A DNA stretch of 63,663 nt, filler included, from Pseudovirgaria hyperparasitica (taxonomy: Eukaryota), in NCBI GenBank assembly GCA_010093815.1. It is 12 parts of 11 records of this genome, joined end to end, with 100 filler letters (N's around TTAATTAATTAA, not from the genome) between each part and the next. Parts side by side here need not be neighbours in the genome. Positions count along the whole stretch, not along the records: positions 1 to 9,665 come from ML996628.1; 11 more parts are not named here. The stretch is one strand, 5' to 3'. The position numbers and the translations under genes are program-made. How positions within the stretch are numbered: position 1 is the stretch's first letter; every line of letters begins with the position of its first letter. Under the pieces are notes generated by a model, which saw only the letters and a list, made by a program, of their open reading frames with translations, made no database searches and was not told where the DNA came from. This document shows positions 1,370-51,295 of the stretch, in pieces.

Positions 1370-1607
1370 TATAATGAGTAAAGACGTAGGATAGTAGTCT
1401 AACAGTTCATAGAGAGACATAGGAATGTATTTATAGAGTAGTCTCACTCTTATACGAGGTCGATTCCTAACGAGCAGGAATCGGTTTGTACGGTCCACTT
1501 ATATAGTGACCTCGCTTAACCTAGCTAACTCATCCTAGCTCTGGCCGCTACGTGGCTGCATGGATTAGAATAGTCTATATAGGTCCGTTAGGGTTCCCGT
1601 CCTAATA
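1370..1607 (-). repeat. 3' LTR of Gypsy A copy 1 (238 bp)
   Basis: Matches 9178-9415; adjacent PPT (AAAAAAGAAGAAGGATAT on the minus strand); TG..CA termini RIP-altered. Confidence 0.93.
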
Positions 1608-2086
1608 ATATCCTTCTTCTTTTTATGCTTCGCCCCGAAGTACTCAAGTATATATAATCCTAAGTCTCTATGATCTACCGTATATCTATATATCCGTGAC
1701 TAAGTTCCTATAACGTTATAACCATCCTTAATATAGGTGAACTCGAGATTCTAGTTTACTTTTACTAGTTTATACACGCGCTCATCCCTTGCTTCGTGGC
1801 TACTACCTAGGACATATAATCGCTACTTTGGTCGAGCATATATTTAGCTTCGCTCGCCTTTGATTTTATTCTCTAGTATATCTACCTCGCTCTTAAGGTA
1901 AGTCGTTAATTTATATACTATCTTCCCTAGTTTAGGTTTAGAAGGGTCTGTTATGGTCTATTCTTGTTAGAACCGGTCCTATGTAACCTATTCGCGTTAT
2001 TACGGTCACTGATTTAGCTTCGTTAACTACCGTTAAGGGTGGACGAATATTCCTTCCTTAGATCTCTAGCTAACGTATGTATATAG

Positions 2087-3402
2087 ATGTCTAATACTAG
2101 TCCTATCTCTAAGCCTGCCTCCTCCTCTTGCAAGACTCGCTCTAAAGGTATTGCCTCCTCCCCGGCCACGCCGGCCAAGAAGCCCACCCATCGCGGTGGT
2201 ATGAAGGCGCGCTCCAAGTCGGAGAAGAGAGTAGCTAGGGCTGCTACTGCTGCTTCTGCCTCTGCCACTGATGTGGCCACTGGTCGCTCTAATCCAGGTG
2301 ATCCTAGTACTGAATTTGTGGATGAAGCGGTCGTAAGTTCTCCCCTCGCTCTAACGCGCACGCCGCCTACTCTACCTCCTCTAGAGAATGAAGAAGATCT
2401 CGTTATAGATAATGATCGCGAGCCCTCGCGCTCACCCACGCCGCCGCCTCGCCGCTCTTCCTTCCGGTCTAATATAGACCGATTTAGTCGCTCTAGGTCC
2501 TTTTAGGACCTTAATATCCGCTCTAAACCCTAGCCTACTAATAATAAGGCCTAGGTCGCCGAGGATACTAAACGTGGTCGCGGTTTACGCCATAGGAAAA
2601 CGGCGAACTACGGTTTGATATACTATAAGTGTATTAAGGGCCATACGGCCGGCTCTAAATATCTCTTTCGCTCTAACTCTGGCATCAGCTACTACTCTAC
2701 TAACCGCGACGGGCCTATGCGCCCTATCTTTACTCTGCCTGCCCGCTGCCGCCGCTATGCCGTGACTGGTAAGACTTATCTATAGGTAAGTATAATGGGC
2801 TATCTTGGTCTAGTATAATCTAAAGTTATCCGCGCTGATACATTCTTAGGTTCCTATGTATATGTAAGATATATATAACGACCTTCGCGTCCGCGAGACC
2901 CTCGGGGGTTCTCGTAGCTACCTACCTACTATGTAGAGGGAGTTTAGGGAGCGCTATAAGCTCTTCCTAGAGGTTATTAAAGTATAAGTTGCGAACACGT
3001 TAATTGTTTTTAACACCTATTGATATTTCTAGCCGCCGCGAGATCCCTAGCGCCTAGGCTACCTATTCTAGGGAGTCTATCCTAGCCATAGAGGCCGTAG
3101 AGAGGATTCGCTCTATCCCCCCCTATCCGTCTCGCGCTACTAACGGATCTCGCAAGAGGTCTACTATTTCTCCCTCTAAGTCGCCTCGTAAGAGGGTATA
3201 TGTTCCCTTCTAGATTATTCTAGATCGTGTTAGCTAACTTTGGACCTAGTCGCTGCGCTCCGGCGCTTAAGGCTCTTCCCTCTAGGCTCTAACGGATCGA
3301 GTTATTACTCTAGAGGCTAAGGTCGTCGTCCTCCGCCGCTATATCGTACGGTTAGAGAGGACTATACTAGAGGTTAGGACGGATGATAAGATGGAGGAGT
3401 AG
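2087..3402 (+). pseudogene. Antisense spliced accessory gene inside Gypsy A: S/P/T/K-rich N-terminus, Zn2Cys6-like cluster, basic patch, C-terminal coiled coil (about 382 aa after de-RIP)
   Basis: Exons 2087-2785, 2850-2983, 3033-3195, 3250-3402 (1149 nt, in frame) plus a 5' UTR intron 1898-2086; GT..AG introns with CTAAC/CTGAY-like branch points (the 2984 donor is intact only in copy 2); internal stops are only TAG/TAA (RIP type). Confidence 0.75.
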
Positions 3403-3690
3403 CTCTATGGTTCTAGCTCTATGGGTTTAGCTCTATGTATTAGCTCTATGTGTTCTGGATCTGCTATAGGTGGTGCGCGCCGACTCTGTTTGCCTGGCTT
3501 TTATCCGTTTTAGTCCTTTTTAGACCGTTTAGATACCCGTCGGCTAGTTCCTAGTAATTTAATTCTTGACTTAACGATATTGTATGTGCGCTCGCTTAGC
3601 TTGTGACTATCGGTTTCTATATTCTAATTTTCCTTAAGTCACCTAAGTGTAGGCACCGTATATCAATTAGTTTGTCTCTATGAATTCCAT

Positions 3691-3789
3691 TAGAGTACCC
3701 GAACCAGTGGCCTAGTGGTTATTAGTTCGGGTACTCTAACCTTTTGTATTTCGTGTTAAGAGTTCAATTCTATGGTGGGGTACCTTTTT
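3691..3789 (+). other. tRNA/Pol III-like hairpin element within Gypsy A
   Basis: Inverted repeat TAGAGTACCCGAAC..GTTCGGGTACTCTA enclosing A-box-like GTGGCCTAGTGGTTA; B-box-like GAGTTCAATTC at about 3760; T5 run at 3785; also present in copy 2 (about 19740-19840). Confidence 0.4.
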
Positions 3790-3959
3790 GGGTTCTTGGT
3801 CCCATATTTTTCTCGTATGCAATGGTCCATGTTAGTCCATTCTAGACTCTTCTATGTTATTCTATTGTGGTATGTCGCGTCGCGTTCCTAAAATGGTTGT
3901 TTACGCTTTCTTCGCGTCTGGTAACCGTGCGACGCTTGAATTGTGGGGCTGCCATATAG

Positions 3960-6900
3960 AGTTTTCCTAGTGCGCGTCTGGATTTCCTGGTTTAGCACTT
4001 CGTTCTCTGCGGTATCCTTCTTCTTTTTACGACGACCGCGACGTCGCTATGCTTACATTAATAATGCGCTATTCTATACCTTTTACTTATACGCAGCCAT
4101 TGCCGAACTTAAGATGTATACCGCTAGTTCCTAGGTGTCCTCGTCCTCGGTACAGTCCTTCTAACAGATTCTATATTTCTAAATACCGTCTTCATCGATC
4201 CTATGTTCAATAATATAGTCCACTTCGAACACGTCTAGTCCATCTTAGGGTATAATAGAGTGTAACTATACGTTCGTGCGGCCATATACGTTAGGTCGAA
4301 ATCTTTCGAGTAGTGAGACGTGGAACACGTTATGGATTCTTATATTACTTCCTAAGTCGAGCTCGTAGACTCTTATACCGATACAACGTTTGATTCGGAA
4401 GGGACTAGCCATTTTATAATCGAGCTTCTTGTTTACTCGCGACGTTTATATGTTACGGACGTTAAGAAGGACCTCGTCGCCCTCCTCGTACGTCTAATCC
4501 TTGGCTAACCTATTATAGTACTTCGTATACGAGTCGTTTACTTGTTAGATTATAGCGCGATAGTTGCGTGCGGTTTCGAAGATTTTAATCGCCAATTCCT
4601 AAGCGTGGACGTTCACGTCTGTTATTCGATTAAATTAGACCGTCTAAGACTTAAAACCTATCCTTAGACTGCGTCCGAGGTTCGCCTAGAAAGGTATAAT
4701 ACCTATCGTGCTATAACGACTATTATTATATACGAACTCTACTATACTTAGTAGGGAGGCCTAGTCGTCCTACTCGAAATTATAGAATGCGCGTAGGTAG
4801 GCCTCGAGCATCTGGTTCTATCGCTCTGTCTAGCTATCCGTCTAAGGATGAAATACTATAGACATGTTTCTATTCATACTTACCATTTCGCAGAATGACG
4901 TCTAGAATTTAGACGTGAAGGTACTTCCTCGGTCCGTAACGATCCTTTTTAGTATACTATAGACCTTAATAATCTCGTTCTAGAACACCTGCGCTAGTTC
5001 TTTGGATATAATCGTCTTCTATACCGGGATGTACCTAGACATCTTTATAAGTCTGTCCACGATAATAAGAATAGAATTATAACTTATCCTAAGCATCTCG
5101 CTTAGAGGCAAGTTAACTATAAAGTCCATAGTAACGTCTTCCTATATAAAGAGGGGGACTAAAAGAGGCTGTAAATTCCTATATGGCTTGTGTCTAGGGG
5201 CCTTCGTTCTTTAACAAATTGGATAAGTAGCTATCCATTCTTCGACGTACTTAGGCATATCTTCCTAAAAATAGTACTAACGAATTGAGCTTAGGGTACG
5301 TACATACCTAAAGTATCCTACTAGGTTAGCGTTATAGTATCGGCTAACTACGTTAAATCGCGCGTTACCTATCGGCATATAGTACTTTCTATTATAGTGA
5401 AGTAAGCCGTCTACGAAGGTCTACTTATAGTCTACTTTAGTCCGTAATAACCTATCTTACTATATTTTACGTAACTTTAAAACTGTCGGGTCTATCTTCT
5501 ATAGATCCACGATTAACTAGGCGAGGTTAAGTAGATATTCACGCCGGGCATTGTCGTCCTTCCCGATAGCGCTAATAAACGGCCTACTAGGGACTTTGGT
5601 ACCGCGTCTTTGGTTACCGGCTTCGGTCTTAGAGATTCGATTACCGGCATTAACGTTAGCATCTCGCTAATCGCCTAATAACTTAAAATCCAACCTCGTC
5701 CTTAAGAGTTGGGCCTATAGCTACTCTAGGACCCTATGACCACTATAATCCTAGGCGCCTTCTTTATAGTTAGGTCTTCTTAATATCCCATTAGCTAGGT
5801 TTATACTTCTAGGTCGATGGTAGATCATAAAGTGAAAGTTCGTAAGCTACTTAGCCTATTGAACCTGTCGATAGTTTAAAACCGTCGTGCTCATAAACCC
5901 CTTTAAGTTATAGTAATTAGTTAGTAACTCGACGTTATGTATGGCACCTTTAAGATAATGTCGCCACTGTTTAAACGACTCTACTATTACTAGTAGCTCT
6001 TGGTCATGGATAGTGTATCTAGTCTTAATATCGACCATTTTGCGCGAGAAGAACGTAACTAGATGCCATTAGACCTTTTTAGACTTAGTTGGTCTAGGCT
6101 AGGAGAGAATGCCTAAGATTATAAATCCTAACGCGTCGGTTTCGACGCGGATAGGTTTAGTTAGGTCGAAGTACACCAGTAATAGGGTAGTTATAAATGC
6201 CTCTTTGATTTTCTCGAAGGAGGCCCTTTCGCCTTCCGATAATTCTATAGGCTGCGATTCGATATTACGCTGTTTCTATCTACCGCGGACCGTAATAGAC
6301 GAATCTATGGTAGTAGTACGCGCGTTAAGCGGTACTACTAGCCGGGAGAAGTACTTGACGAATTTTCGGTAGTAATTGGCGAATCCGATAAAGACACGTA
6401 TATCTTAAACCGATTTTGGTTTAGGCTAGTCCACGATAGCAGCGACCCTGTCCCTTTCTATGGTTATACCTTGATTAGTGATGACGAAGCCAAGGAAGTT
6501 AACGTGGTCCTAGTGGAACTCGCATTTAGATAGCTTAATATATAGCTTATGTTTTTCTAGCCTATCTAGGACTGCGCGTACGTGCTAGATATGTTCTTCT
6601 TCGTTATCCGAGAAGATAAGGATGTCGTTAAGGTATACGATGCACGTCGTGTTAAGTAGGCCTACTAGCGCGTTGTTAATGTACGCTTAGAAGGTCCCTA
6701 GCGCGTTGGTTAGTCTAAAAGGGACCACTATATACTCAAAGTGTCTATAACGGGTCCTGAACGCCGTTTTCTACTCATCGCCCTTCTTAATACGTAGGCG
6801 GTAGTAGGCGTCACGTAGATCGAGCTTAGTAAAGATCTTCGCGCGCCCTAGTCTATTAATAGACTCGGAGATAAGAGGTAGTAGGTAACGATTCTTTCGC

Positions 6901-8830
6901 GTAATGTTATTCAGGCTATGGTAGTCAACACATAGACGGAGACTTCTATCCTTCTTCTTTATAAAGAGGATTAGGGCTCCGGCTAGGGATATACTAGGCC
7001 TAATCTATCCTCGCGTAAGGTTCTTTTTGATATATTCTCGGAGGACCTATAGCTTAGGTTCTAATAGAGGGTAGATAGGTCCGTGTAGGGGTTATTAACC
7101 GTTCTCGAGGTTAATAGTAAGATCGGTAGGTTGGTATTAAGGTAATTCGGACGAGTCGATCGCTAACGCGACATGTTAGTACATTTTATACTAATATAGT
7201 AGGTTTTCGTCCACTCTAATGCTAAGCTCTCTATTTTAAGTGAGTAAGAGGACGTAGATAGTAGAGATTGCCTTTTCGTAGTCCTTCTGGAATTATTCGT
7301 CGTCGACTAGCTATACTAGGTTCTATTATGGTGGGTGCATGCGCCAGCCAGCTGTTTTCTAGATGAAGTCCAGTTTCGGGTTATATTTTTCGAGCTACGG
7401 TATACCGAGAATTATATTAAAGGGGCTATCTACCACGATAAAGGTTGAGTAGTAGGGTTTCCACTTCCCCCCGCTGTCCTAGATACTGTATTTAATGGTA
7501 TAGGTACCCTACGATTTAATAGGACTATCGATACTATGGAAGATAGCATCTATTAGTGCTTGAATGTCGACGTTAAGTTCTCGTGCTCGTTAAGTCGATA
7601 TAACGTTGGTGGCTAAACCGCTATCGAGTATTACGGTCCAATGTTATCCACGGGGGACCTCGATGGGCCTAGCCTATAGTTCGATATACTAGTTGACTAG
7701 TTATCCCTCTGTTTTGGTTGCGCCTACGAGTCGCGAGGGTTTCTCGTAGGTAGTTAGTTTTTTATGTTATATACCGGGTAGTTAGGCGCGATGTGTCCTA
7801 GCTACTAGCACTTATAGTATATGACTGACTTAGTATCTATATTAGTATTCGGTGGTTTCCTAGAGCGGCACTCGGGTACTATATGGCCTATCCTACTATA
7901 AGTGTAGTAGGTGACTTTGGGTCGTTTATACGAGTCGTTTCTCGCGTCTTAATATATTAACTAGTAGAAAGATCCGCGGTACGGGTCTCGTCTTCTCGAG
8001 TTCGTAGAGTAGTAGCGCCCACGAGGTGTTCCGCGCGATCTATTACTAAACCGGTCCTCTTTGGACGATTTCGTATCGGGTTAGATTAATAGGGATAGTC
8101 GTGCGCCTGTACGACGTTGGTTATTCATTATACGCCAATGTTATTCTACGAGATTCACGAGTGCCTAAAGGTTGGTAGAGATAGACGTTGTAAGGTCGAT
8201 GCGTTCCTTTACGCTTAGATTAAGGGACCTTTTAAAGTCGTCGCATTATTAAACCATGCGATCTTCCTTAGCTTCTCTCTAGAGAGGTCGGAGGTATTTA
8301 AGGAGTTATAACGGGGATTGTCTTTCTCGCTATTAAGTCTTAAAGATATGGCTCTAAGCCTATTCGCGTCGCTCGGCTCTATCGCCAAAGTATTAAAGGA
8401 GGAATTTAGTAAACGTGTCCTAGTTATGCGCATTCTTAGGGTGTTCGATTCGATGTGCTATCTAACGTTTAGATGGCGTTAGGTCTAGGTAGTTCTATGC
8501 GAACCTAATCTTATTACTATCGTTCGTGAATAGGTGGAAGAATCGGCTGTACTAGTGAGCCCATTTATAAAAGCTCCTCCTGGTTTTACCGTCGAAGTAA
8601 GGTGGTTTCTTAGGCTAAGGTAACTGGGATAGTAATGGACTTGGTTGGACTGTTTCGGCTTGAGTTGGTCCATATTAGTGTAGGTTAGTTGCTACTAGCA
8701 CTAAAGCGCGTAGTGCGGCTTCGAGTCTAGCGGTTCGTCCTTACGCTTCGTCGAGTTCGCGAAGTTACTATTTAAGCTACGCCTAACGCTACCTTTCCGT
8801 GTATAGTCTAGTATACACGTTATCGTAAGG
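3960..8830 (-). pseudogene. gag-pol of Gypsy A copy 1 (CA-NC / PR-RT-RNaseH-IN-chromodomain), many RIP stops; ends approximate
   Basis: Domain motifs readable on the minus strand; AAAAAAC slippery site at about 7756-7763 between gag and pol frames; chromodomain DVFEVDYIIEHR...KYRICxKDCTEDEDTxE at about 4130-4240. Confidence 0.9.
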
Positions 8831-9177
8831 CGTGGTTAACGTTAGTCGGTTCTAACGAATTAGTTCGTTAACGTTAACAGGGTCTAGTCTTATAGTAAGG
8901 ATGGGTCTAGTATAGTATGAACTAGACCGCGATGGAGTATAATAGACTTCTTCCTTATTATCTAGGTAGTCTTCCATAGTTACACGGAATGCCGTACTAG
9001 TTATTAGTGCGATAGCTTATAGGGTATACTTATTAGTGGAGGTGGTCGTAGGGAGACTATTCTCTTCGTTTAGATTTAGAGAGAGTCTCTCGTGTAAGGT
9101 AGTGCCACGGGTATTATAGCGCGTAGTAGGAGCTATCTCTATAAGCTACCGTCGTACTATATAGAGAGGAATCAAAA

Positions 9178-9415
9178 TGTAAAGAGTAAAGACGTAGGAT
9201 AGTAGTCTAATAGTTTATAGAGAGACATAGGAATGTATTTATAGAGTAATCTTACTCTTATACGAGGTTAATTCCTAACGAGTAGGAATTGGTTTATACG
9301 GTCTACTTATATAGTAACCTCGCTTAACTTAGCTAACTTAACCTAGCTCTAGCCACTACGTGGCTACATGGATTAGAATAGTCCATATAGGTCCGTTATG
9401 GTTCCCGTTCTAATA
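9178..9415 (-). repeat. 5' LTR of Gypsy A copy 1
   Basis: 238-bp direct repeat of 1370-1607; PBS region TTTTGATTCCT immediately internal. Confidence 0.93.
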
Positions 9416-9665
9416 CTTCTATACTATATCTATAAGAGAGGCGTTCCCGATACCTCCCTATAGTATAAGGCGTATAGCCGAAGAGGTATAATACGCTACT
9501 ATCTAGCTATATACCCTAACCTCTATATATAATAGTAATAGCTTATCTACGTTATAAAGACTTTAGATATTATATAATAGCTTAATAAGTACCCTAAGGA
9601 CGTCTCCCGATAGATACTTATATATCTACTACTCCTCTAGTACTAGTAGACCCGGAAATATATAC
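9416..9665 (+). mobile_element. Tad1-like LINE fragment (ORF2 C-terminus), inverted relative to 122-1369
   Basis: Matches 38706-38955 on the same strand and is the reverse complement of about 462-711. Confidence 0.85.
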
Positions 9666-9765
9666 NNNNNNNNNNNNNNNNNNNNNNNNNNNNNNNNNNN
9701 NNNNNNNNNTTAATTAATTAANNNNNNNNNNNNNNNNNNNNNNNNNNNNNNNNNNNNNNNNNNNN
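9666..9765. other. Artificial contig linker N44-TTAATTAATTAA-N44; also at 13916, 22457, 30647, 37292, 39516, 42619, 48813, 54615, 56527, 58781
   Basis: Identical 100-bp unit carrying stop codons in all six frames. Confidence 0.97.
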
Positions 9766-11604: not shown

Positions 11605-14114
11605 TATGCGGATAGCTGCAAAGGTGAGAGGGTCTTGTACCAGGAACAAAAGTTGAGGAGTGGAAAGTGAAAAGTGGAAAGAATTCAAGTCGTGTGTTAG
11701 ATCTGTGCGGGAGCGTAAAAAGGTATGAGGAGTAAATCTTCAGCAGATTGTGAAAGATTAAGCCCTCATCAGTGACGGCAAAGCCGAATCTCGATCACTC
11801 AGCATCTAGAGCATAATTGTCTTTCCTCGCAAGTAGCGAGCCGACCAATAGTCGGCCTTCCGCTCCTTCCCCTTTCTTTTTCTTCTGGGCGCCACTCGGC
11901 CTCCTTGCGTTCCAGAGTGTGACAGGAGTACCATAACACCTCTTGGACAAGCTGTAACCACTTCCCCTTGAGACGATGGAGGAGGCAGCTTTAACCCCTG
12001 TGTTCGTCCCACGGAATGCTTGCCAAATACCGATGATGGACCATTCGACATGGAGATGGTAGGTTGGATTTTCACCAGGTCGGTGTTGCGGAGTATTCCG
12101 TTCAGATGCACATTCCTCCATTGGTCCAGTACCGATGAATCTATCAAGTCTCCTTAGAATTCGTATTAGCTATGTGCCATCTGGCTGTGACAGACCCATT
12201 GCAGAATTCCACATCCTCAATGGCCGGCCTCAGCTTTCGGAAATCCTCTAAGATTTCCCCGATCAGATCATGTTCCCATTGATCTTCTCAACGTTAGTTA
12301 TGGCTGTCCATCGAGACGTGATTGGAAGTGGCCGTACAGAGAGGCCCGCAATTGCAAATGCATGGTCGTGTAAAGAAAGGCTTTGTTGTTCGATCGTGCA
12401 GTAGGACGACGGCGCGATCCGTCGTTTTCCTAGAACCTGACGAGCTTGGCATTTTCCATTTCACGCGTGTGTTCTCACCCCAAATCTTCCATGGTTATTT
12501 TACCTTTCTACCTCTATTTAGAGGTCTATATATTATAATATCTAATTTTTAAGCTCTAAACGATTGAAGTACTTCGTTCATTAGCTCTCATAATTGCGTA
12601 AGATGCGAGCGGTCGTACGTGGTGTGATTTTTGCTTCCCCATCTCGATAAAGGCCGATGAAAGTCTACTCAGCGGACCAAAATGACAGGAGAATTGTTCC
12701 AAGTCAAATTGTGGAAGAATAAGCCCATGTCGAACGTATAGAGAAACGAATGCAGGCACATATTAACGAACTGACTACAGAGAGTTGTGGTACTCTCTCT
12801 TATCCAATGACTTGGTAAAAGAACCCACTTAACTCCATCACATCTAAGGGGAGGACGGGAGTGGGTGACTGGATGCATCAACATGGCGTACTTTGTCTCA
12901 ATGGATCCTGTAATTTGTGTATCAATGCATTGGAAAGATCAGTGGGTCCAACTCTCACTACAAGTGCTCTCCCAATAATGGCTGCTTAATTCGTATCATC
13001 CAGCCAGATATACTGCAAATCAACAATATTGACACACAGGTCTCCCAATTTCTGCACTCTGTACTTGTGCAAGATCTTCGGTCCCAAGTCGTGTATAGAG
13101 CGCACGAGTATGCACAGGCAGAATTGTGCTCGGGTCACCGTGTACCTTGTAACATGGTGGAGCACCTTGTACTTGGGAATATGGTAGATCACTATATCGC
13201 GCTAGCGACTGTGATCGTGCGCTCTGTAACACGGTGGAGCAAGTGATTCGGAACATGACGGGGTGAGCTGCATTGCGTTAGTAGCGCCGAGCGCATATCA
13301 TGACCTTTCGAACATGGTGGAGTGCACGGTGCCGTGCAAGTAACCCCCCGTTCGTGAACTCTGGAACATGGTGGAGCAAGATCTAGCCCGTCACACTGGA
13401 GATCTTGGAGTTCTGCTTTCAGGACAACATCATCCTGGGTCGTCTCATACGTCGCACCGGCTACAGAAAGGCCACACTCTCGCTTCGCCTCATTCTTAGG
13501 CACGTCAAGCCTTTGAACCCCCCAGACGAGATCATGATGATACCCAGCTATATGGTAAGCTGCTCTTGGCGGCAATCCATGCACCCATACATCGAAGCAA
13601 TCCAACGAGTCCAGCATGGATGTTAGGTTCCGATCCCCACCCACGCTGGGATTCTCTGGTCGAAAATGACATATCTTGAGTCGGAATGCCAGGTTGGGAG
13701 GCAGGAGGACTCACTTTTGATCCCGTATACGACGATCAGTAGTGCCAGTGCTGCTTCGTCGCACACCAGCCGCCAGTCTGCGAGTCTATCAAGGGTCAAG
13801 ACCACAGCGTGGTTTCAGGCATGCTCTGGCGCGGGGCGTAGCTGATGGACAGTCTACAGGATCCCTGCTCCACTGGGCAATCGGAGTGCTGGTCCGGCAA
13901 GGAGTGTCCTGGCAANNNNNNNNNNNNNNNNNNNNNNNNNNNNNNNNNNNNNNNNNNNNTTAATTAATTAANNNNNNNNNNNNNNNNNNNNNNNNNNNNN
14001 NNNNNNNNNNNNNNNTTCTACTCTACTCTATTCTATTCTAAGGAAACTACTAGAGCTATAGAACGTATACGTACGTCTAGAGGTCTAGAAGATTCCTATT
14101 ATTAATTAAGAGAA

Positions 14115-17600: not shown

Positions 17601-19570
17601 AGTTACTAACTAATTACCATAACTTAAAGGGGTTTATAAGTATAACGGTTTTAAACCGTCGATAGGTTTAATAGGCTAAGTAGCTTACGAACTTTCACTT
17701 TATAATCTACCATCGACCTAGAAGTATAAACCTAGCTAATAGGATATTAAGAAGACCTAACTATAAAGAAGGCGCCTAGGATCATAGTAGCCATAGGGTC
17801 CTAGAGTAGCTATAGGCCCAACTCTCGAGGACGAGGTTAGATTTTAAGTTATTAGGCGATTAGCGAGATACTAACGTCAATGCCAGTAATCGAATCTCTA
17901 AGACCAAAGCCGGTAACTAAAGACGTGGTACTAAAGTCCCTAGTAGGCCGTTTATTAGCGCTGTCGGGAAGGGCGATAATACCTAGCGTGAATATCTAAT
18001 TAACCTCGCCTAGTTAATCGTGGATCTATAGAAGATAGACCCGATAGTTTTAAAGTTACGTAAAATATAGTAAGATAGGTTATTACAGACTAAAGTGGAC
18101 TATAAGTAGACCTTCGTAGACGGCTTACTTTACTATAATAGAAAGTACTATATACCGACGGGTAACGCGCGATTTAACGTAGTTAGCCGATACTATAACG
18201 CTAACCTAGTAGGATACTTTGGGTATATACGTACCCTAAGCTTAATTCATTAGTACTATTNNNNNNNNNNNNNNNNNNNNNNNNNNNNNNNNNNNNNNNN
18301 NNNNNNNNNNNNNNNNNNNNNNNNNNNNNNNNNNNNNNNNNNNNNNNNNNNNNNNNNNNNNNNNNNNNNNNNNNNNNNNNNNNNNNNNNNNNNNNNNNNN
18401 NNNNNNNNNNNNNNNNNNNNNNNNNNNNNNNNNNNNNNNNNNNNNNNNNNNNNNNNNNNNNNNNNNNNNNNNNNNNNNNNNNNNNNNNNNNNNNNNNNNN
18501 NNNNNNNNNNNNNNNNNNNNNNNNNNNNNNNNNNNNNNNNNNNNNNNNNNNNNNNNNNNNNNNNNNNNNNNNNNNNNNNNNNNNNNNNNNNNNNNNNNNN
18601 NNNNNNNNNNNNNNNNNNNNNNNNNNNNNNNNNNNNNNNNNNNNNNNNNNNNNNNNNNNNNNNNNNNNNNNNNNNNNNNNNNNNNNNNNNNNNNNNNNNN
18701 NNNNNNNNNNNNNNNNNNNNNNNNNNNNNNNNNNNNNNNNNNNNNNNNNNNNNNNNNNNNNNNNNNNNNNNNNNNNNNNNNNNNNNNNNNNNNNNNNNNN
18801 NNNNNNNNNNNNNNNNNNNNNNNNNNNNNNNNNNNGTATTATACCTTTCTAGGCGAACCTCGGACGTAGTCTAAGGATAGGTTTTAAGCCTTATACGGTC
18901 TAATTTAATCGAATAATAGACGTGAACGTCCACGCTTAGGAATTAGCGATTAAAATCTTTGAAACCGCACGCAACTATCGCGCTATAATCTAATAAGTAA
19001 ACGACTCGTATATAAAGTACTATAATAGATTAGCTAAGGATTAGACGTACGAGGAGGGCGACGAGGTCCTTCTTAACGTCCGTAACATACGAACGTCGCG
19101 AGTAAACAAGAAGCTCGATTATAAAATAGCTGGTCCCTTCCGAATCAAACGTCGTATTAGTATAAGAGCCTATAAGCTCGACTTAGAAAGCGATATAAGA
19201 ATCCATAACGTATTCCACGTCTCACTACTCGAAAGATTTCGACCTAACGTGTATAACCGCACGAACGTATAGTTATACTCTATTATACCCTAAGATAGAC
19301 TAGACGTGTTCGAAGTAGACTATATTATTAAACATAGGATCGATAAAGACGGTATTTAGAAATATAGAATCCGTTGGAAGGACTATACTAAGGATAAGGA
19401 CACCTAGGAACCAGCGGTATATATCTTAAGTTCTATAATAGCTACGTATAAGTAAAAGATATAGAATAGCGCATTATTAATATAAATATAGCGACGTCGC
19501 GGTCGTCGTAAAAAGAAGAAGAATGCCGTAGAAGACGAAGTACTTAATTAGAAAATCTAGACGCGCACTA
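14700..19570 (+). pseudogene. gag-pol of Gypsy A copy 2 (RIP stops; ends approximate)
   Basis: Same motifs as copy 1 on the plus strand, e.g. [39 protein letters not shown]. Confidence 0.9.
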
Positions 19571-20112: not shown

Positions 20113-21425
20113 CTACTCCTCCATCTTATTATCCGTTATAACCTCTAGTATAGTCCTCTCTAACCGCACGATATAGCGGTAGAGGGTAATAACCTTAGCC
20201 TCTAGAGTAATAACCCGATCCGTTAGAGCCTAGAGGGAAGAGCCTTAAGCGCCGGAGCGTAGCGACTGGGTCTAAAGTTAGCTAACACGATCTAGAATAA
20301 TCTAGAAGGGAATATATACCCTCTTACGAGGCGACTTAGAGGGAGAAATAGTAGACCTCTTACGAGATCCGTTAGTAGCGCGAGACGGACGAGAGGGGAT
20401 AGAGCGAATCCTCTCTACGGCCTCTATAGCTAGGATAGACTCCCTAGAATAGGTAGCCTAGGCGCTAGGGATCTCACGGCGGCTAGAAAAATCAACAGGT
20501 GTTAAAAACAATTAACGTGCTCACAACTTACACTTTAATAACCTCTAGGAAGAGCTTATAGCGCTCCCTAAACTCCCTCTATATAGTAGGTAGATAGCTA
20601 TAAGGACCCCTAAGGGTCTCACGGACGCGAAGGTCGTTATATGTATCTTATATACGCATAGGAACCTAAGAATGTATTAGCGTGGACTACTTTAGATCAT
20701 ACTAGATCAAGACGGCCCATTATACTTACCTATAGATAAGTCTTACTAGTCACGGTATAGCGGCGGTAGCGGGTAGGTAGAGTAAAGATAGGGCGTATAG
20801 GCCCGTCGCGGTTAGTAGAGTAGTAGCTAATACTAGAGTTAGAGCGAAAGAGATATTTAGAGCCGGCCGTATAGCCCTTAATGCACTTATAGTATATTAA
20901 ACCGTAGTTCGCTGTTTTCCTATGGCGTAAACCGCGACTACGTTTAGTATCCTCGGCGACCTAGGCCTTATTATTAGTAGGCTAGGGTTTAGAGCGAATG
21001 TTAAGGTCCTAAAAGGACCTAGAGTAACTAAATCAGTCTATATTAGACCGGAAGGGAGAGCGGCGAGGCGGCGGCGTGGATAAGCGCGAGGGCTCGCGAT
21101 TATCGTCTATAACGAGATCTTCTTCATCCTCTAGAGGAGGTAGAGTAGACGGCGTATACTTTAGAGCGAGAGGAGAACCTACGACCACTTTATCCATAAG
21201 TTTAGTACTAGGATTACCTAGATTAGAGCGACTAGTGGCCATATTAGTAGTAGAGGTAGTAGTAGTAGTAGCCCTAGCTACCCTCTTCTCCGACTTAGAG
21301 CGCGCCTTTATACCACCGCGATGGGTAGACTTCTTAGCCGGCGTGGCCGGGGAGGAGATAATACCTTTAGAGCGAGTCTTACGAGAGGAGGAGGCAGGCT
21401 TAGAGATAGGACTAGTATTAGACAT
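20113..21425 (-). pseudogene. Antisense spliced accessory gene of Gypsy A copy 2
   Basis: Homologue of 2087-3402 (MSNTSPISKPASSSRKTRSKG...); retains the GTAAGT donor lost in copy 1. Confidence 0.75.
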
Positions 21426-21904
21426 CTATATATACATGTTAGCTAGAGATCTAAGAAAGGAATATTCGTCTACCCTTAACGGTAGTTAACGAAGCTAAAT
21501 CAGTAACCGTAATAACGCGAATGGGTCATATAGGACCGGTTCTAACAAGAATAGACCATAATAGACCCTTCTAAACCTAAACTAGGGAAGATAGTATATG
21601 AATTAACGACTTACCTTAAGAGCGAGGTGGATATACTAGAGAATAAAATCAAAGGCGAGCGAAGCTAAATATATGCTCGACTAAAGTAGCGATTACGTGT
21701 CCTAGGTAGTAGCTATAAAGTAAGGGATAAGCGCGTGTATAAACTGGTAAAAGTGAACTAGAATCTCGAGTTTACCTATATTAAGGATAGTTATAATATT
21801 ATAGAAACTTAGTCACGGATATAAAGATATACGGTAGATTATAGAGACTTAGGATTATATATACTTAAGTGCTTCGGGGCGAAGTATAAAAAGAAGAAGG
21901 ATAT

Positions 21905-22142: not shown

Positions 22143-22556
22143 GAGAAGGATCTAGAATATATAAGGAGGAATATATAAGGAATAGTCTCTCTATGTATTT
22201 AGTTCTCTCTCTATCTAGTCTTTACTTTAAGAATTATACTATATTCTTATTATCTTTAAGCTATACTCCGCCGATCCGTTTATTATATAATAGTCTATTA
22301 CGGCTAGATCCTATTATATAACTCTATTTAGATATATATTCCTTATATAAGGAATATTATATATCTATTTATACCTGCCCTTTTCATACTACTAGACTTA
22401 GTAGTCTTATTCTTCTTATTCTTTTTTAATTCAGGATGCTTTTTAAAACAGGTATTNNNNNNNNNNNNNNNNNNNNNNNNNNNNNNNNNNNNNNNNNNNN
22501 TTAATTAATTAANNNNNNNNNNNNNNNNNNNNNNNNNNNNNNNNNNNNNNNNNNNN

Positions 22557-23095: not shown

Positions 23096-23947
23096 TCCAG
23101 CCCAAAACATCCGGCGTCGGTTCTCTCGGTCTACTTGCATTCGACTTCTTTTCTCTTCTTTTCGAATGGTGAGCAACTGGAGAATTGATGTACAACAATT
23201 TTGAATACATAGGCTTGCTTTGGAAAGCTCTACGCTGGCTCGAGTAATGGCCTCGTCGGGGTGCTCTCTTATCGACATCCTAGAGAACCACTTAAGCACT
23301 GTCGTATGGGTGATTCTGCGCGACTCACACTTCTCTGCTGTATTGATGCTGTAAATCTGTATCTAGAAACTGTGGATGACCGGAAAGGCAGACTAATCAT
23401 CTGCTGGTGAATCTGGGGGAGTGCCCGCTTTCTTGATCCCGAAACGAAGCCCTCACGGCACTTGCCATCCATGAACTGGAAACCAGGGCTGGCCTACTAA
23501 ATATAGAATCTAGTGCCACGCCATATTGCATGCACAGCGGACAGCTTTCGACATGCCTCCTGTTTTTGGCAACACATCATCGGCACAGCCCAGACGACGT
23601 TGAACAGACCGCGTGAACATGGCCATGCCTAGTCAGACAAGTATAACATAGATCATTGGCTTCAAGGAATGCGTTCAGCTGTTTCCCAATAGGTCCCTAC
23701 TATCTGATAGTACTTGCACAGCAACGAGTCTAAGCTGCGGGGATTCCTGACGCAGGGGGTTTTCCCGCCTCATTAATGAATCGTTAGCTAGTATTGGATT
23801 GTCGGAGACTAGCTGAAAGTCAACGCCCTTAGGAGGGCGCAGGGAGTTTATGCAAAATTTATCTTTGGCACCACGCATAATCCTGTAGACCTTTCAAGCA
23901 AGGAGGAGGTGAGTACGATTACTTGGCACACTGCGACGTAGAGTCAG

Positions 23948-24586
23948 ACGATAGAACCGCTGGAAAAGGCGGATGAGTCGAGGACGTATAGAAATCAAGC
24001 ACAAAGAACGCATGATGAGAATCACGATACCAAACTCTTTCCAATATCTAGACTTATCCAGCCGGGACTGTCTACCAGTAGCTCTACAAACCATGCTGCC
24101 AGAATCAGAGGTGACAGACATGGTAAGCTAAAGATTGTGAAGAACGCTATGGAACTGATAACAGTGCAGCTCCCTAATGCATTCATTCATATCGATCGCG
24201 ATATTCAAGAGAGATGTCTTTCGGTTCGTACAACTTTGCAACACTTTTACAGCCAGCTTCGCGATGCCACGGGTGAATTAGTTTCTCAAGTAGCACAGCT
24301 TCGCGAGGCCAATGCTGCGCTCGCCAGGAACAATGAGAGTTTGCTTAGGGAGATAGAAACGCTCCATCTCACGATCGACCCGGACTATCTTGCACAGGCT
24401 TCCGAGACTCAATCGTCGCCTACATCAACTGCGGGGTTGCAGAGGGTGGGACCTACCCTGCGTCCTCGAAACGGACGAAATCGCCCCCGCCAAGTTTTAC
24501 CAAAAATTCCGGAAGGCGGGCCGGAAGAGCCAGTAAAAGCTACTGAAAGCCTTGAGCAGAGTCATGTTAGTCTTAGAAGACCATGA
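23948..24586 (+). CDS. Hypothetical coiled-coil protein, multi-exon (5' end unresolved); paralogue at 50658-51295
   Basis: Intron 24123-24163 (GTAAGC..ACAG) joins ...RGDRH to VQLPNAF...; heptad stretch LVSQVAQLREANAALARNNESLLREIETL; frame open in both copies. Confidence 0.45.
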   Translation, partial: TIEPLEKADESRTYRNQAQRTHDENHDTKLFPISRLIQPGLSTSSSTNHAARIRGDRHGKLKIVKNAMELITVQLPNAFIHIDRDIQERCLSVRTTLQHFYSQLRDATGELVSQVAQLREANAALARNNESLLREIETLHLTIDPDYLAQASETQSSPTSTAGLQRVGPTLRPRNGRNRPRQVLPKIPEGGPEEPVKATESLEQSHVSLRRP

Positions 24587-24889
24587 AGCATGAGACTTGA
24601 CGAACTAGAAACACATGGGATAGGGACAAGACGACAGGGACGCAGCGTCATCTATTTAGTTTGCCGTCGTGGGAAATACTACTAAGAGACGCTTTTCTCG
24701 TCAAACTTAGCCCTTATACAAACAGCTGTCGATGGAGAAAGGGATTCTACTGTAGTAACTAGTTCCAACGGCGTTGTAAATTGTACATCTGAAAGCACCT
24801 GGACTTTTTTATAAAAAAGACTATTAGGCGAAGAATACAACAGCTTAGACTAGAGGAGGCACAGCCTGTAGAGTAAAAAATAACTCTAC

Positions 24890-25824: not shown

Positions 25825-27645
25825 ATGAGCACCAGTATGAACACCAGCAAGGAGCATTCCACCGACACGGCTTCAACGCTGCTGCAGGCCTCGCAGCCTC
25901 CACTTGATACTCAAGAACACAAACCCAAGGCGCAGGCTGCTGAGTCTGGCAGCGATCTCCTCATCCCTGATAAGAACATCGAGCCACGTCAGCAGCGGAC
26001 CCCGTCTCTAACACCAGAACCAGCGTCAAGACCCAGCGAAGAGCAAAGCAATATCTCAACGAGCACAGCGCCGCCGCCGCTGCAGGCTCTGCAGCCTCCA
26101 CTTGACACGCACAATGACCAACTCAGGGCGCGCGGTGCTGAGTCTGACAGTCCTCTTTTCGTCACTGATAGTGAGACAAAGCCACGCCAGCAGCTAGCCA
26201 CGTCTCAGGCGCCCGAACCATCGTCAGGACCCAGCAAGTCGGATGAGACCATTAGCCAACCTGTAGCACCGATGACTCAAGCATCGCAGGCTTCTCATAA
26301 GAGTGCTAACTTGAAAGTTGATGACAGCATAAAAAGAAAGCGCATGAAAAAGGCCGAGCGCAGGCGCAAGCTGGCCGCAAGGACCTCGGACGACCTTGAC
26401 GATGGAGAGGCAATGGAAGTTGATGTGGATCTCCCACCAGTCCCCGAGTCCAGCGAGCATCGGGAACATTATAGAAGCATGCATACCCAGGCTTATGGAT
26501 ATGTCCTTGCATTCGTGCGGGATGAAGAAGCGGGCGCAAGATTGCAGATTGACAAAATCAACCAAGATATTCTCGACTACAACAACAGAGCACAGCTACC
26601 CAAAGAGCACCTGACCGATGGAATCATCGGCCACGANNNNNNNNNNNNNNNNNNNNNNNNNNNNNNNNNNNNNNNNNNNNNNNNNNNNNNNNNNNNNNNN
26701 NNNNNNNNNNNNNNNNNNNNNNNNNNNNNNNNNNNNNNNNNNNNNNNNNNNNNNNNNNNNNNNNNNNNNNNNNNNNNNNNNNNNNNNNNNNNNNNNNNNN
26801 NNNNNNNNNNNNNNNNNNNNNNNNNNNNNNNNNNNNNNNNNNNNNNNNNNNNNNNNNNNNNNNNNNNNNNNNNNNNNNNNNNNNNNNNNNNNNNNNNNNN
26901 NNNNNNNNNNNNNNNNNNNNNNNNNNNNNNNNNNNNNNNNNNNNNNNNNNNNNNNNNNNNNNNNNNNNNNNNNNNNNNNNNNNNNNNNNNNNNNNNNNNN
27001 NNNNNNNNNNNNNNNNNNNNNNNNNNNNNNNNNNNNNNNNNNNNNNNNNNNNNNNNNNNNNNNNNNNNNNNNNNNNNNNNNNNNNNNNNNNNNNNNNNNN
27101 NNNNNNCAAATAGTCCCAGGACTCCAGAGACACACTGCTGGATTATATGGAGCAACGAACTGCACCATCTGACTAGATCAGATCTGTGTAGGGTGCTGGG
27201 GAAGGAAAGTGCGAACAACGACATTAACACTCTGTGCAAGAAACATGGAAAGCCGACGCTGCACGAGAATGAGCCACAGACATCTCTCAGCCCTGGGGTT
27301 GACTCGTCCCAGCTCAAGATTGCAAAACCAGATTCGAGATCGATCGAAGATAGATTCCTTAGGTTGGAACAGAAGATACAAGAGCAGGATTCAATACTTG
27401 AGCGGATCATGAACGAGGACACTCTGTGCAAGAAACATGGAAAGCTGACGCCGCACGAGATTCAGCCACAGACATCTCCCAGCCCGGAGAGTGAATCTTC
27501 TACCAGTTCTCAACTATCAAAGGCCCTGGCCGGTAATGGGGTTGACTCGTCCCAGCTCAAGATTGCAAAATCAGATTCGAAATCGATCGAAGATAGATAC
27601 ATCACGTTACCGATAAGTCACTTTGATCAATTCTTAGAAACCTGA
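25825..27645 (+). CDS. Hypothetical low-complexity protein with internal repeats (spans N gap 26637-27107)
   Basis: Open on both sides of the gap; duplicated LQAxQPPLDT..AESxS..PRQQ units and LCKKHGK..PQTS..GVDSSQLKIAKxDSxSIEDR units; TATA-like TATAAAA at 25774. Confidence 0.5.
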   Translation: MSTSMNTSKEHSTDTASTLLQASQPPLDTQEHKPKAQAAESGSDLLIPDKNIEPRQQRTPSLTPEPASRPSEEQSNISTSTAPPPLQALQPPLDTHNDQLRARGAESDSPLFVTDSETKPRQQLATSQAPEPSSGPSKSDETISQPVAPMTQASQASHKSANLKVDDSIKRKRMKKAERRRKLAARTSDDLDDGEAMEVDVDLPPVPESSEHREHYRSMHTQAYGYVLAFVRDEEAGARLQIDKINQDILDYNNRAQLPKEHLTDGIIGHXXXXXXXXXXXXXXXXXXXXXXXXXXXXXXXXXXXXXXXXXXXXXXXXXXXXXXXXXXXXXXXXXXXXXXXXXXXXXXXXXXXXXXXXXXXXXXXXXXXXXXXXXXXXXXXXXXXXXXXXXXXXXXXXXXXXXXXXXXXXXXXXXXXXXXXXXXXXXXNSPRTPETHCWIIWSNELHHLTRSDLCRVLGKESANNDINTLCKKHGKPTLHENEPQTSLSPGVDSSQLKIAKPDSRSIEDRFLRLEQKIQEQDSILERIMNEDTLCKKHGKLTPHEIQPQTSPSPESESSTSSQLSKALAGNGVDSSQLKIAKSDSKSIEDRYITLPISHFDQFLET

Positions 27646-36362: not shown

Positions 36363-37291
36363 TATAAGGATTATAGACGTAGAATAGTAGTCTAATAGGT
36401 TATAGAAGGATTTAGGAATATATTTAAAAGGGTAGTCTACTCTCTTAACGAGGTTAATTTCTAAAGAGTAGGAATTAAGTATATGCGGCCTACTTATATA
36501 GTGGTCTCGCTTATTCTAGCTAGCTTACCCTAGGTCCATCTATTACGGACTATACTAGACTATAGTATTCTAGTTAAGTCTATTCTAGTATTAGCCCTAA
36601 TAATATTCTTCTTCTTTTTATGCTTCGCTCCGAAGTACTTAGCTATATATAAATCTATAATTCTATAAGCGTTATATTTATATACGCATCTAATTAAATC
36701 TATATAACGTTATTAATAGTCTTTATATTAGTAAACTTAAGCTCTAGTTTACTTTTATTTATATACGCGCTTATCCCTTACTTTATAGCTACTACCTTAG
36801 AGATAGCTCCGCGGGTTATATAACCGCTATATTAACTAAGCTTATATTTAGTTCTCTTATTCTAAATTTTCTTCTCTAGTATATCTACCTTACTCTTAAG
36901 GTAAGTCGTTAATTCATATACTATCTCCTTTAGTTTAGATCCGTTCAGATCTAGAGTAGGCTATTTTTATTAGAGCTAGTCCTATATAATCTATTCGCGT
37001 TATTATAGTTACTAATTTAGCTTCTTTAATTATCTTTAAGGCTAAATAAGTATTCTACTCTTAGATCTCTAGCTAACGTATATATATAGATATCTAATAC
37101 TAGTTCTATTTCTAAGTCTACCTCCTCCTCTCATAAGACTCGCTCTAAAGAGATTACCTCTACCCCGGCTATACTAGCTAAAAAATCCACTTATTATAGT
37201 AGTATAAAGGCGCGCTCTAAGTTAGAGAAGAAGGTAGCTAAGGCTACTACTACTATTACTACTAACGTAGCTACTAGTCACTCTAATCTAG
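36363..37291 (-). mobile_element. Partial Gypsy A-related element: divergent 3' LTR (36363-36602) and start of the antisense gene (37090-37291, + strand), nested in Gypsy B
   Basis: LTR similar to 1370-1607 in its first part and divergent towards the PPT; PPT; 5' UTR intron from 36901; (M)SNTSSISKSTSSSHKTRSK. Confidence 0.85.
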
Positions 37292-39294: not shown

Positions 39295-39825
39295 ATATTC
39301 TATTATATAAGACTTCTAGAGTAAAGGGAAACTCTAGAAGAACTCTATAAAAAGTATTCTAGAGAAGATAGATCTATTAAATAGACGAACGAGTATCTAT
39401 TATATTCTAGAGGATATTATACCTCTATTCTAGATGTTATTATACCTCTAATATAGAGGTTATATATCTATAGACGTTACTTTACCTCTACTCTAGAGCT
39501 AGTTCTACTCTAGAGNNNNNNNNNNNNNNNNNNNNNNNNNNNNNNNNNNNNNNNNNNNNTTAATTAATTAANNNNNNNNNNNNNNNNNNNNNNNNNNNNN
39601 NNNNNNNNNNNNNNNCTGTCGCGTATAGAGCATATTAGAGACTCTAAACTGAGAGTCTCGGAGGGCGAGAACCCTGCTGCTAATTCACTTACTCCCCTGT
39701 GTGGTGAGTGAGGTGTTTTGAATGTCACCTCATTGAGACGGCGTGTTGCTTCAAGAATTCGTGCCTCTGTAGTCATGTTGTCTAGAAGGTGGCGATAAGC
39801 TCCTGGGTGGTACAAGAGTTTCTCA

Positions 39826-50657: not shown

Positions 50658-51295
50658 TCATGGTCTTCTAAGACTAACATTACTCTGCTCAAGGCTTTCG
50701 GTAGCTTTTACAGGCTCTCCCGGCCCGCCTTCCGGAATTTTTGGTAAAACTTGGCGGGGGCGGTTTCGTCCGTTTCGAGGACGCAGGGTAGGTCCCACCC
50801 TCTGCAACCCCGCAGTTGATGTAGGCGACGATTGAATCTCGGAAGCCTGTGCAAGATTGTCCGGGTCGATCGTGAGATGGAGCGTTTCTATCTCCCTAAG
50901 CAAACTCTCATTGTTCCTGGCCAGCGCAGCATTGGCCTCTTGAAGCTGCGCCACTTGAGAAACTAGTTCACCCGTGGCATCGCGAAGCTGGCTGTAAAAG
51001 TGTTGCAAAGTTGTACGAACCGGAAGCCAGCTCTGCTGAACCTCGCGATCGATACGAATGAATGCATTATGGAGCTGCACTGTTATCAGTTCCATAGCGT
51101 TCTTCACAATCTTTAGCTTACCATGTCTGTCACCTCTGATTCTGGCAGCATGGTTTGTAGAGTACTGGTAGACAGTCCCGCCTGGATAAGTCTAGATATT
51201 GGTAAGAGTTTGGTATCGTGAATCTCATCACGTGTTCTTTGTGCTTCATTTATATACGTCCTCGACTCATCCACCTTTTCCAGCGGTTCTATCGT
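50658..51295 (-). CDS. Hypothetical coiled-coil protein, paralogue of 23948-24586
   Basis: Highly similar translation and the same intron signals. Confidence 0.45.

Follow-up and report, generated by a model that had tools for sequence, protein, structure and literature searches.

A probable spliced accessory gene antisense to gag-pol in a mutated chromovirus family of Pseudovirgaria hyperparasitica

Introduction

We analyzed a 63,663-base stretch of DNA (the window) from the fungus Pseudovirgaria hyperparasitica (assembly GCA_010093815.1) and describe a gene carried there by a Ty3/Gypsy long terminal repeat (LTR) retrotransposon of the chromovirus type. With a probability of roughly 0.75, it is a genuine accessory gene of this chromovirus family, encoded opposite gag-pol between the end of pol and the polypurine tract (PPT) and 3' LTR. 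The antisense gene belongs to the element and not to one locus: all three copies of the element in the window carry it, including one of a divergent subfamily. It was constrained while the subfamilies diverged, and relatives have intact genes of the same build, which in one lineage are under strong purifying selection. Mutation has carried every copy seen in this genome past the point of function, and the gene is here a fossil.

To our knowledge, accessory genes are rare among LTR retrotransposons, and almost nothing is known of their functions. The gene described here has four introns, one in its 5' untranslated region (UTR) and three within its coding sequence. It would make the multi-intron antisense gene an integral, selected part of a chromovirus lineage.

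Results

A predicted spliced frame in the spacer separating pol from the 3' LTR

The gene lies on the plus strand, opposite gag-pol, in a spacer of about 2.4 kb between the chromodomain and the PPT/3' LTR of copy 1 of the element. A presumed promoter and 5' non-coding exon (1626-1897) come first, with the TATA-like run TATATATAA at 1649-1657. They are followed by a 5'UTR intron of 189 nucleotides (nt) (1898-2086; GC 37.6%), read as GTAAGT...GCTAAC...TAG, whose final TAG (2084-2086) directly precedes the ATG at 2087. The blocks around TATATATAA and around the donor of this intron are conserved in the divergent copy 3, where the donor and the branch/acceptor blocks are nearly unchanged.

Exon 1 (2087-2785, 233 codons) encodes a Ser/Pro/Ala-rich N-terminus and then a Cys/Tyr-rich region ending in C-R-R-Y-x6-Y-L-stop. 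Coding intron 1 (2786-2849; 64 nt, phase 0; GTAAGT...CTGAT...TAG; GC 35.9%) separates it from exon 2 (2850-2983; 134 nt), which ends in phase 2. Coding intron 2 (2984-3032; 49 nt; GC 28.6%) keeps its GTAAGT donor in copy 2, whereas mutation has made it ATAAGT in copy 1. Exon 3 (3033-3195; 163 nt) ends in phase 0 with the basic patch SRKRSTISPSKSPRKR, and after coding intron 3 (3196-3249; 54 nt; GTATAT...GCTAAC...TAG; GC 37.0%) comes exon 4 (3250-3402; 153 nt), encoding a four-heptad leucine zipper from 3289, an acidic tail and the terminal TAG. All of these features are on the plus strand.

The spliced frame has 1,149 nt, or 383 codons, and holds eight TAG and two TAA (terminal TAG included) and no TGA; copy 2 has an additional TGA at codon 132, which reads CGA in copy 1. 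A first-pass annotation of this DNA had proposed a UTR intron ending at the ATG, three coding introns and a 383-codon frame broken only by TAG and TAA, and our re-derivation for copy 1 arrived at the same model. That annotation had also described a chromovirus with about 2.3 kb of extra DNA between chromodomain and 3' LTR, and three copies of the gene (at 2087, 21425 and 37090), one with a divergent LTR. The element type is borne out, its chromodomain match being below threshold, the extra DNA measures about 2.4 kb to the PPT, and all three gene copies are there, the third being partial.

The remainder of the spacer (3403-4012) is a presumed 3' UTR containing a tandem repeat and a hairpin. The repeat, a 14-nt unit resembling TAGCTCTATGGTTC, occurs four times at 3400-3456, beginning at the stop codon of the gene, and copy 2 has one unit fewer. 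The hairpin is a perfect 13-bp inverted repeat (3692-3704 and 3725-3737) with a 20-nt loop. The region 3690-3790 has a tRNA-like look, a reading that was dropped: ARAGORN and Rfam scans of contig 1 gave no match.

Composition and divergence point to a constrained coding sequence

Could the frame be a chance run of codons and splice-like motifs in AT-rich, mutated DNA? Stop codons discriminate poorly here. The proposed frame has 10, compared with 13, 17, 17, 44 and 49 in the other five frames of the same spliced sequence, and one expects a frame damaged by repeat-induced point mutation (RIP) to hold TAG and TAA only; stop counts alone are weak evidence in such DNA. All 10 stops are common to copies 1 and 2. 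Such sharing is expected, because gag-pol, which must once have been open, likewise shares 95 of the 103 copy 1 stops with copy 2.

Composition follows the model closely. The exons have a GC content of 52.4% and the introns 36.0% (Fisher p = 6e-8); each exon falls at 45.5-55.8% and each intron at 28.6-37.6%, with a step at all eight exon-intron boundaries. Adenine is depleted at codon position 3 in the predicted phase of all four exons (0.10, 0.11, 0.07 and 0.16 for exons 1 to 4). The corresponding periodicity has p values of 3e-11 for exon 1, 0.09 for exon 2, 0.01 for exon 3 and 0.23 for exon 4, and the non-coding controls show no codon periodicity (upstream flank, p = 0.14; UTR intron, 0.32; downstream spacer, 0.5). 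In copy 1, the 2.44-kb module that fills the spacer has GTAAGT three times on the plus strand and not once on the minus strand, against a window background of 0.21 per kb per strand. One of these, at 2333 inside exon 1, probably arose by RIP, since copy 2 reads GTAGGT there; the intron 2 donor is what copy 2 has instead.

Comparison with copy 3 shows constraint on exon 1. Transversions number 29 of 238 sites in the LTR, 21 of 283 in the upstream flank and 10 of 189 in the UTR intron, and only 2 of 196 in exon 1 (Fisher tests give p = 0.0014 when flank and intron are taken together and 4e-5 for all non-coding sites). Since RIP does not produce transversions, we read the low count in exon 1 as constraint. 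The exon indels between the copies are of 3 and 9 nt only, but fall within a GCT repeat.

Genes of the same build in distant relatives

With an alignment of nine of the closest pol relatives we retrieved 78 chromovirus loci, 633 kb in all, among metagenome contigs. In pol, the nearest of these to our element is L002, which is 39.6% identical to it across 1,020 aligned residues; it carries an intact antisense gene of 266 residues between pol and its PPT/LTR. The UTR intron of this gene measures 196 nt and its exons 294, 164, 142 and 201 nt. Its three coding introns (44, 47 and 51 nt) fall in phases 0, 2 and 0, with donors GTAGGT, GTATGT or GTACGT and branch sites CTGAC or CTAAT. A second locus, L001, has an antisense gene of 286 residues, whose UTR intron is 134 nt long and whose exons measure 267, 197, 211 and 186 nt, again in phases 0, 2 and 0. 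The window gene, L001 and L002 thus agree in having one intron in the UTR and three in the coding sequence, the latter in phases 0, 2 and 0.

Short motifs recur at corresponding places. In both relatives, intron 1 comes two codons after a Cys motif (C-E-S-C-x5-C-L-E in L002; C-G-R-C-x6-C-L-A in L001). Exon 3 ends in SPRKR in the window gene and SPAKR in L001, before the phase-0 intron, and SRATNGSRKR in the window gene compares with SRATSGKKRR in L002. By eye, the C-termini of all three are an amphipathic helix with a short acidic or basic tail. The three elements also have a PPT/LTR-end sequence in common. The proteins themselves are not significantly alike, which leaves position, strand, intron number, intron phases and short motifs as the grounds for kinship.

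Scanning the 78 loci for C-x2-C-x5-7-C-[LIVM]-x followed by GT gave seven antisense matches and one sense match. In four of the seven (L001, L002, L021 and L033) the match falls within the pol-to-LTR spacer and has a good donor; the other three are off target. L021 and L033 are intact copies of another lineage, with a 280-residue antisense gene of two introns, the first directly after C-x2-C-x7-C-V-E. Between these two copies, the ratio of nonsynonymous to synonymous substitution rates (dN/dS) is 0.089 for the antisense gene (0.036 for exons 1 and 2), compared with 0.15 for pol.

Broader surveys gave leads of lesser weight. LTR pairs were found in 21 of 52 loci, several of them contig-end artefacts. 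A finder of spliced open reading frames (ORFs) of at least 200 residues returned antisense candidates in 15 of 36 loci and sense candidates in 8 of 36; it serves as a lead only, since its candidates extend into flanking DNA and the L021 model escaped it. One apparent antisense ORF, at 5171-6031 (minus strand) of L009, matches HTH_Tnp_Tc3_2 with an expectation value (E) of 1e-10, the N-terminus of a Tc1/mariner-type transposase, and is probably a neighboring transposon rather than part of the chromovirus.

The predicted protein and its cysteines

What kind of protein did the gene encode? The first-pass annotation had proposed a Zn2Cys6-type cluster, on the assumption that Tyr codons revert to Cys once RIP is undone. 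That rule mostly fails. Copies 1 and 2 together resolve eight Tyr codons: six were Arg (CGY, mutated on both strands), one was His and one, codon 221, was Cys. Another 13 Tyr codons read TAY in both full copies. The annotation had also counted two directly visible Cys. Two genuine ones do exist in the domain, at codons 182 and 221, and the Cys at codon 15 is a mutated Arg. In the C-x2-C-x6-C predicted before intron 1, the first Cys is real (codon 221), and codons 224 and 231 read Tyr in both copies; these two Tyr of C-R-R-Y-x6-Y-L-stop occupy the positions of Cys in L001, L002, L021 and L033.

The Zn2Cys6 domain has the compact spacing C-x2-C-x6-C-x5-12-C-x2-C-x6-8-C. The inferable Cys of the window gene and the Cys of L001 and L002 are spread over 50-65 residues, outside this pattern, and only the last triad can be inferred here. 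Pfam scans of the Cys-rich piece (2507-2785, E up to 10) and of the three plus-strand frames (E up to 1) found no family, neither Zn_clus nor bZIP; the bZIP scan ran on unspliced frames. The Zn2Cys6 label is not supported for this gene. The RKR...PRKR basic patch and the L-x6-L-x6-L-x6-L zipper are present as first described: Leu occupies four successive heptad positions from 3289, followed by Val, and the patch SRKRSTISPSKSPRKR ends 13 Gly/Ser-rich residues before the first zipper Leu.

Searches with parts of this and related proteins returned little else. The ESM Atlas gave no relative (best 0.82 in one search and 0.77 in another). A word search with the intact exon 1 of L002 matched only itself, and Pfam found nothing meaningful in the antisense ORFs of L021, L033, L001, L002, L051, L069, L038, L015, L034, L043 and L022.

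Zn2Cys6-spaced antisense frames in other chromoviruses

The exact Zn2Cys6 spacing does occur elsewhere in the collection. In six frames of the 633 kb it matched four times, always antisense just after pol and never sense: L024 3650-4228, L028 5719-6156, L043 5837-6166 and L077 5240-5836, each on the minus strand. After the cluster, L028 and L077 have EEEW or EKEW and then, by eye, a long coiled-coil-like stretch. Pfam Zn_clus matched three of the four ORFs at E values of 0.0045, 0.036 and 0.48 and L043 not at all, every score being below the 21-bit cut-off. A four-sequence profile run against the PDB had LAC9, GAL4 and CYP1/HAP1 on top (E 0.056-0.6, not significant). By entry name, 11 of the 18 rows listed are zinc-cluster proteins (E 0.056-8.6, none significant), counting the PUT3 and RSC3 rows, which we take to be such proteins. 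The antisense ORFs of L015 and L034 look similar to this type.

The zinc-cluster and coiled-coil architecture first proposed for the window gene therefore exists in antisense ORFs of related elements; membership of the window gene in that group would be conjecture.

Copies of the family and their decay

The three copies lie on three separate contigs, and three of three element copies in the window carry the gene. Copy 2 is inverted and takes up contig 3 (14110-22142, interrupted by an N gap at 18261-18835), flanked by a 5-bp target-site duplication, GAGAA, at 14105-14109 and 22143-22147. Its antisense gene, with UTR intron and four exons, occupies 20113-21614 on the minus strand and starts at 21425. 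Copy 3, of the divergent subfamily, spans 36363-37291 on the plus strand. It has the LTR, the region upstream of the gene, the UTR intron and exon 1 as far as its 205th nt, where the contig ends; its gene starts at 37090 and its ATG reads ATA.

The marks of RIP are plain. Private differences between copies 1 and 2 comprise 568 transitions and 26 transversions, and the transitions fall at CpA (308), CpG (165), CpC (65) and CpT (30). Many CpG sites are mutated on both strands (CG to TA), turning Arg CGY codons into Tyr. Two DNA sequencing runs from one sample contributed 7,194 and 2,849 short contigs that map to 1370-4300 and cover all 30 bins, numbers that are not copy numbers; two further runs, X3 and X4, contributed none. 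Their differences from the window are mostly G>A and C>T; these contigs are many diverged, RIP-mutated copies that include the module.

A joint of 1605 to 3539 in one of these contigs was considered as a copy lacking the module and rejected: taken with the reciprocal joint, 3540 to 1370, it points to an LTR inserted in another copy. Some other copy of the family, then, has its module interrupted at 3539-3540 by an LTR or a whole element.

The host element and its surroundings

The window consists of 12 small contigs joined by 100-base linkers of the form N44-TTAATTAATTAA-N44, at 9666-9765, 13916-14015, 22457-22556 and nine more places; the N runs at 18261-18835 and 26637-27106 are gaps internal to contigs. 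Copy 1 (1370-9415, 8,046 bp) nearly fills contig 1 (1-9665). Its 238-bp LTRs, the 3' LTR at 1370-1607 and the 5' LTR at 9178-9415, both on the minus strand, are direct repeats of 91% identity, and the CA terminus of the LTR is visible in a related contig from the DNA runs. The PPT, as read from the sequence, adjoins the 3' LTR at 1609-1625 (minus strand). An exact second copy of its 17 nt stands 2.4 kb away at 4013-4029, right where pol ends; in L002 and L001, too, one PPT-like run at the pol end and another at the LTR bracket the antisense gene. The second PPT copy could be a second primer site resembling a central PPT, or a scar of the acquisition of the module.

The gag-pol frame of copy 1 (4050-9179, minus strand) is a single frame from 9179, with 114 TAA or TAG and no TGA in 1,710 codons. 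Pfam matches RVT_1 (E 3e-26; residues 740-900), RT_RNaseH_2, RT_RNaseH (1005-1115), Integrase_H2C2 (1274-1327) and SH3_Tf2-1 (1567-1627) in this one frame, in the order reverse transcriptase, RNase H and integrase of the Gypsy type. At the C-terminus of pol (about 4110-4229, minus strand), Pfam Chromo matches at the expected place over positions 1-40 of the 53 in the profile, below threshold (E 0.0057; 17 bits, the cut-off being 25.1), and Trp codons there are now stops. The pol relatives in the protein collection are about 50-59% identical in reverse transcriptase and RNase H, with a few amphibian, alga-like and other rows lower, and PF00385 is found in most of the 120 relatives listed.

In gag we noted two CCHC-type knuckles whose Cys are mutated to Tyr, at 7868-7912 and 7808-7822 (minus strand). 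The second, IYYKC..LGH.A, has a short motif in common with the antisense protein (IYYKCIKGH.A, 2618-2644, plus strand). An origin of the module as a rearranged piece of gag was examined and dropped: tblastx against the rest of the window matched only the module's own copies. The flanks of copy 1, AGAGG (1365-1369) and CTTCT (9416-9420), form no target-site duplication, as after recombination between two copies. Other repeat families, 87-97% alike, are common to the window contigs (109-1369, 37420-39307, 54715-56526, 39826-41073, 58881-60275, 23113-24889 and 50350-51822), and copy 1 is embedded in one of them.

Discussion

Our results favor an accessory gene of the chromovirus family, encoded opposite gag-pol. 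How would such a gene persist with its introns? It is antisense to the genomic RNA, which holds only the complements of the splice signals, and its introns would for that reason survive reverse transcription and be copied through every round, in keeping with established retrotransposon biology. Expression would begin at an antisense promoter inside the element, beside the 3' LTR and within the 270 nt between the PPT and the first donor. Before mutation, the protein would have had about 382 residues: a disordered Ser/Pro/Ala-rich N-terminus, a Cys-rich and probably zinc-binding domain that closes with C-x2-C-x6-C two codons ahead of intron 1, basic patches resembling nuclear-localization signals, and a C-terminal four-heptad leucine zipper. 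These features suggest a nuclear (basic patches), dimerizing (zipper), zinc-binding (Cys-rich) protein that may bind nucleic acid. It would act on behalf of the element, for instance in controlling transcription from the LTR or the response of the host to it. We offer the function of a DNA-binding regulator only tentatively.

Several observations weigh against this interpretation. Nine internal stops read as stops in both full copies, and the exon-intron model and the expression of the gene are predictions from DNA alone. The protein has no detected relative: a word-index protein search with it, phmmer with exon 1 against 1.84 billion cluster representatives, and Pfam scans found none, a metagenome scan with exon 1 gave 264 pattern matches of which none was confirmed, and tblastn of the spliced protein against the 78 loci reached a best E of 1.3. 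The likeness to L002 falls short of significance (local z 2.4; 16 of 500 shuffles did equally well). Exon by exon, matched pairs reach z values of at most 2.4 and the best z, 4.2, belongs to a mismatched pair; nor are the L001 and L002 proteins significantly alike (z 0.75). Among the five loci closest by pol, the gene is seen in L002 only. In L005 a run of purines comes about 490 nt after pol, L010 lacks any antisense frame of at least 70 residues in 1,249 nt downstream, and L007 and L016 have too little downstream DNA to judge. As to the putative regulator function, AlphaFold2, run without an alignment, modeled L002 exon 1 at a predicted local distance difference test score (pLDDT) of 42.8.

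Is the gene a further member of a family that already has a name? The antisense gene brtn is reportedly an original description of Zhao et al. 2011, Virology 417:248. It is carried by Boty, a fungal Gypsy element with a chromodomain, in Botrytis cinerea and Sclerotinia sclerotiorum (PMC7264820, PMC8365987, PMC4227169). As far as these citing descriptions go, brtn and the window gene agree in position between pol and the element's 3' LTR, in lying on the opposite strand, in their chromodomain element and in having no known function. A BRTN protein is present in public databases, a BLAST hit to it being reported in a part of PMC5987419, and neither the phmmer search with exon 1 nor the word search with L002 exon 1 reached it or any other protein beyond the L002 query itself. 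In our searches brtn and the window gene show no detectable sequence similarity. Such genes diverge so fast that a missing match is weak evidence. On balance we consider it unlikely, at perhaps one chance in a few, that the window gene is the counterpart of brtn and not new.

A canonical Zn2Cys6 transcription factor with a dimerizing coiled coil, working like HBZ of human T-cell leukemia virus type 1 (HTLV-1), is a less probable identity. It draws on the four ORFs with the exact spacing, all antisense just after pol in the 633 kb, on the coiled-coil-like stretch in two of them, and on the sub-cut-off Zn_clus and non-significant profile matches. The window gene itself speaks against it: Pfam finds nothing at E up to 10, six of the eight resolvable Tyr codons were Arg, its Cys and those of L001 and L002 are too widely spread, the basic patch stands 13 Gly/Ser-rich residues from the zipper with no bZIP family match, and kinship of L001/L002-type with L028/L077-type genes would be a further conjecture.

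We think it very improbable that the gene is a passenger, a host gene captured once and carried without use to the element. In favor of a passenger, no retroelement domain is found in the protein, PMC11963269 documents that LTR elements capture genes, and the gene is absent from some close relatives. Against this stand the lack of a host homologue in the word-index and phmmer searches, the presence of the gene in two subfamilies whose LTRs differ by transversions at 12% of sites and exon 1 at 1%, the same architecture in elements only about 40% identical in pol, and a dN/dS below that of pol in L021 and L033. That there is no gene at all is already contradicted by composition, by periodicity in the predicted phase of all four exons and not in the flanks, by exon-specific conservation against copy 3, and by the identical architecture of the intact L001 and L002 genes, whose ORFs are open through four exons.

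What would an accessory gene of the chromovirus family mean more widely? Its architecture (intron number, phases and, in the relatives, a Cys motif at intron 1) is found again in other elements, although the proteins are no longer recognizably alike in sequence. Many fungal chromoviruses in deep lineages might encode a fast-evolving, spliced antisense regulator that is zinc-binding, dimerizing and DNA-binding, in some cases Zn2Cys6-like, and that is expressed from the 3' end to control LTR transcription or blunt silencing. We regard this generalization as speculative and more doubtful than not. If it were true, these proteins would be a fungal counterpart of HTLV-1 HBZ and the plant aORF-3R proteins, and transposons would be linked to the fungus-specific repertoire of zinc-cluster transcription factors. 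If the proteins bind DNA and dimerize, they would be transposon-encoded regulators overlooked by gene annotation and Pfam. For this genome itself the finding is modest, as all copies are RIP-dead fossils; the intact copies L001, L002 and L021 are material for direct tests.

How does the gene compare with known systems? Among fungi, brtn of Boty is the sole named case of an accessory gene that we found in the literature. Plant Ty3/Gypsy elements such as Grande, RIRE2 and Retand carry antisense ORFs called aORF-3R, that of Retand with the TRP28 domain (PMC7264820, PMC11963269). According to the parts of these sources that we could consult, aORF-3R genes resemble the window gene in position, orientation and presence in most copies of a family, and their proteins are predicted to be nuclear or DNA-binding. 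The features that define an aORF-3R were all found here: a coding region from pol to the 3' LTR on the opposite strand, present in all three copies in the window and conserved like a gene of the element. The plant pol-to-LTR region is described there as long and sometimes furnished with tandem repeats, as here with the 14-nt repeat at 3400-3456. The plant elements are, by the same accounts, mostly of non-chromovirus lineages with proteins unrelated to that of the window gene, in which Pfam finds no match to TRP28 (PF04195). Introns go unmentioned in the available portion on Retand (PMC11963269), whereas the window gene has four.

HBZ is an antisense gene near the 3' LTR of HTLV-1 that is spliced with a short first exon and encodes a bZIP protein. 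The window gene is likewise predicted to be spliced, on the minus strand of its element near the 3' LTR, with a presumably short first exon, basic patches and a zipper. The first-pass description of it as HBZ-like stands as an analogy of layout and fails as homology: there is none, no bZIP signature is matched, the basic patch is not contiguous with the zipper, and the window gene has an additional Cys-rich domain. HTLV-1 is moreover an infectious retrovirus and the window element a retrotransposon. HBZ is itself mentioned in PMC11963269.

The fungal Zn2Cys6 domains (PF00172; GAL4, LAC9 and HAP1/CYP1) have their exact Cys spacing in L024, L028, L043 and L077; the spacing does not fit the window gene, L001 or L002, which have no Pfam match. 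In the literature, supplements lying outside the search, we found no report that joins LTR retrotransposon, Zn2Cys6 and antisense, and among the matches listed for a zinc-cluster antisense ORF in a fungal retrotransposon none was on the subject. Antisense accessory genes lying between pol and an element's 3' LTR are already known in plant and fungal elements. With the caveat that brtn might belong to the same family, what is new here is a Cys-rich and zipper-bearing protein without database relatives, the four-intron structure of its gene, and the conservation of that gene across elements about 40% identical in pol.

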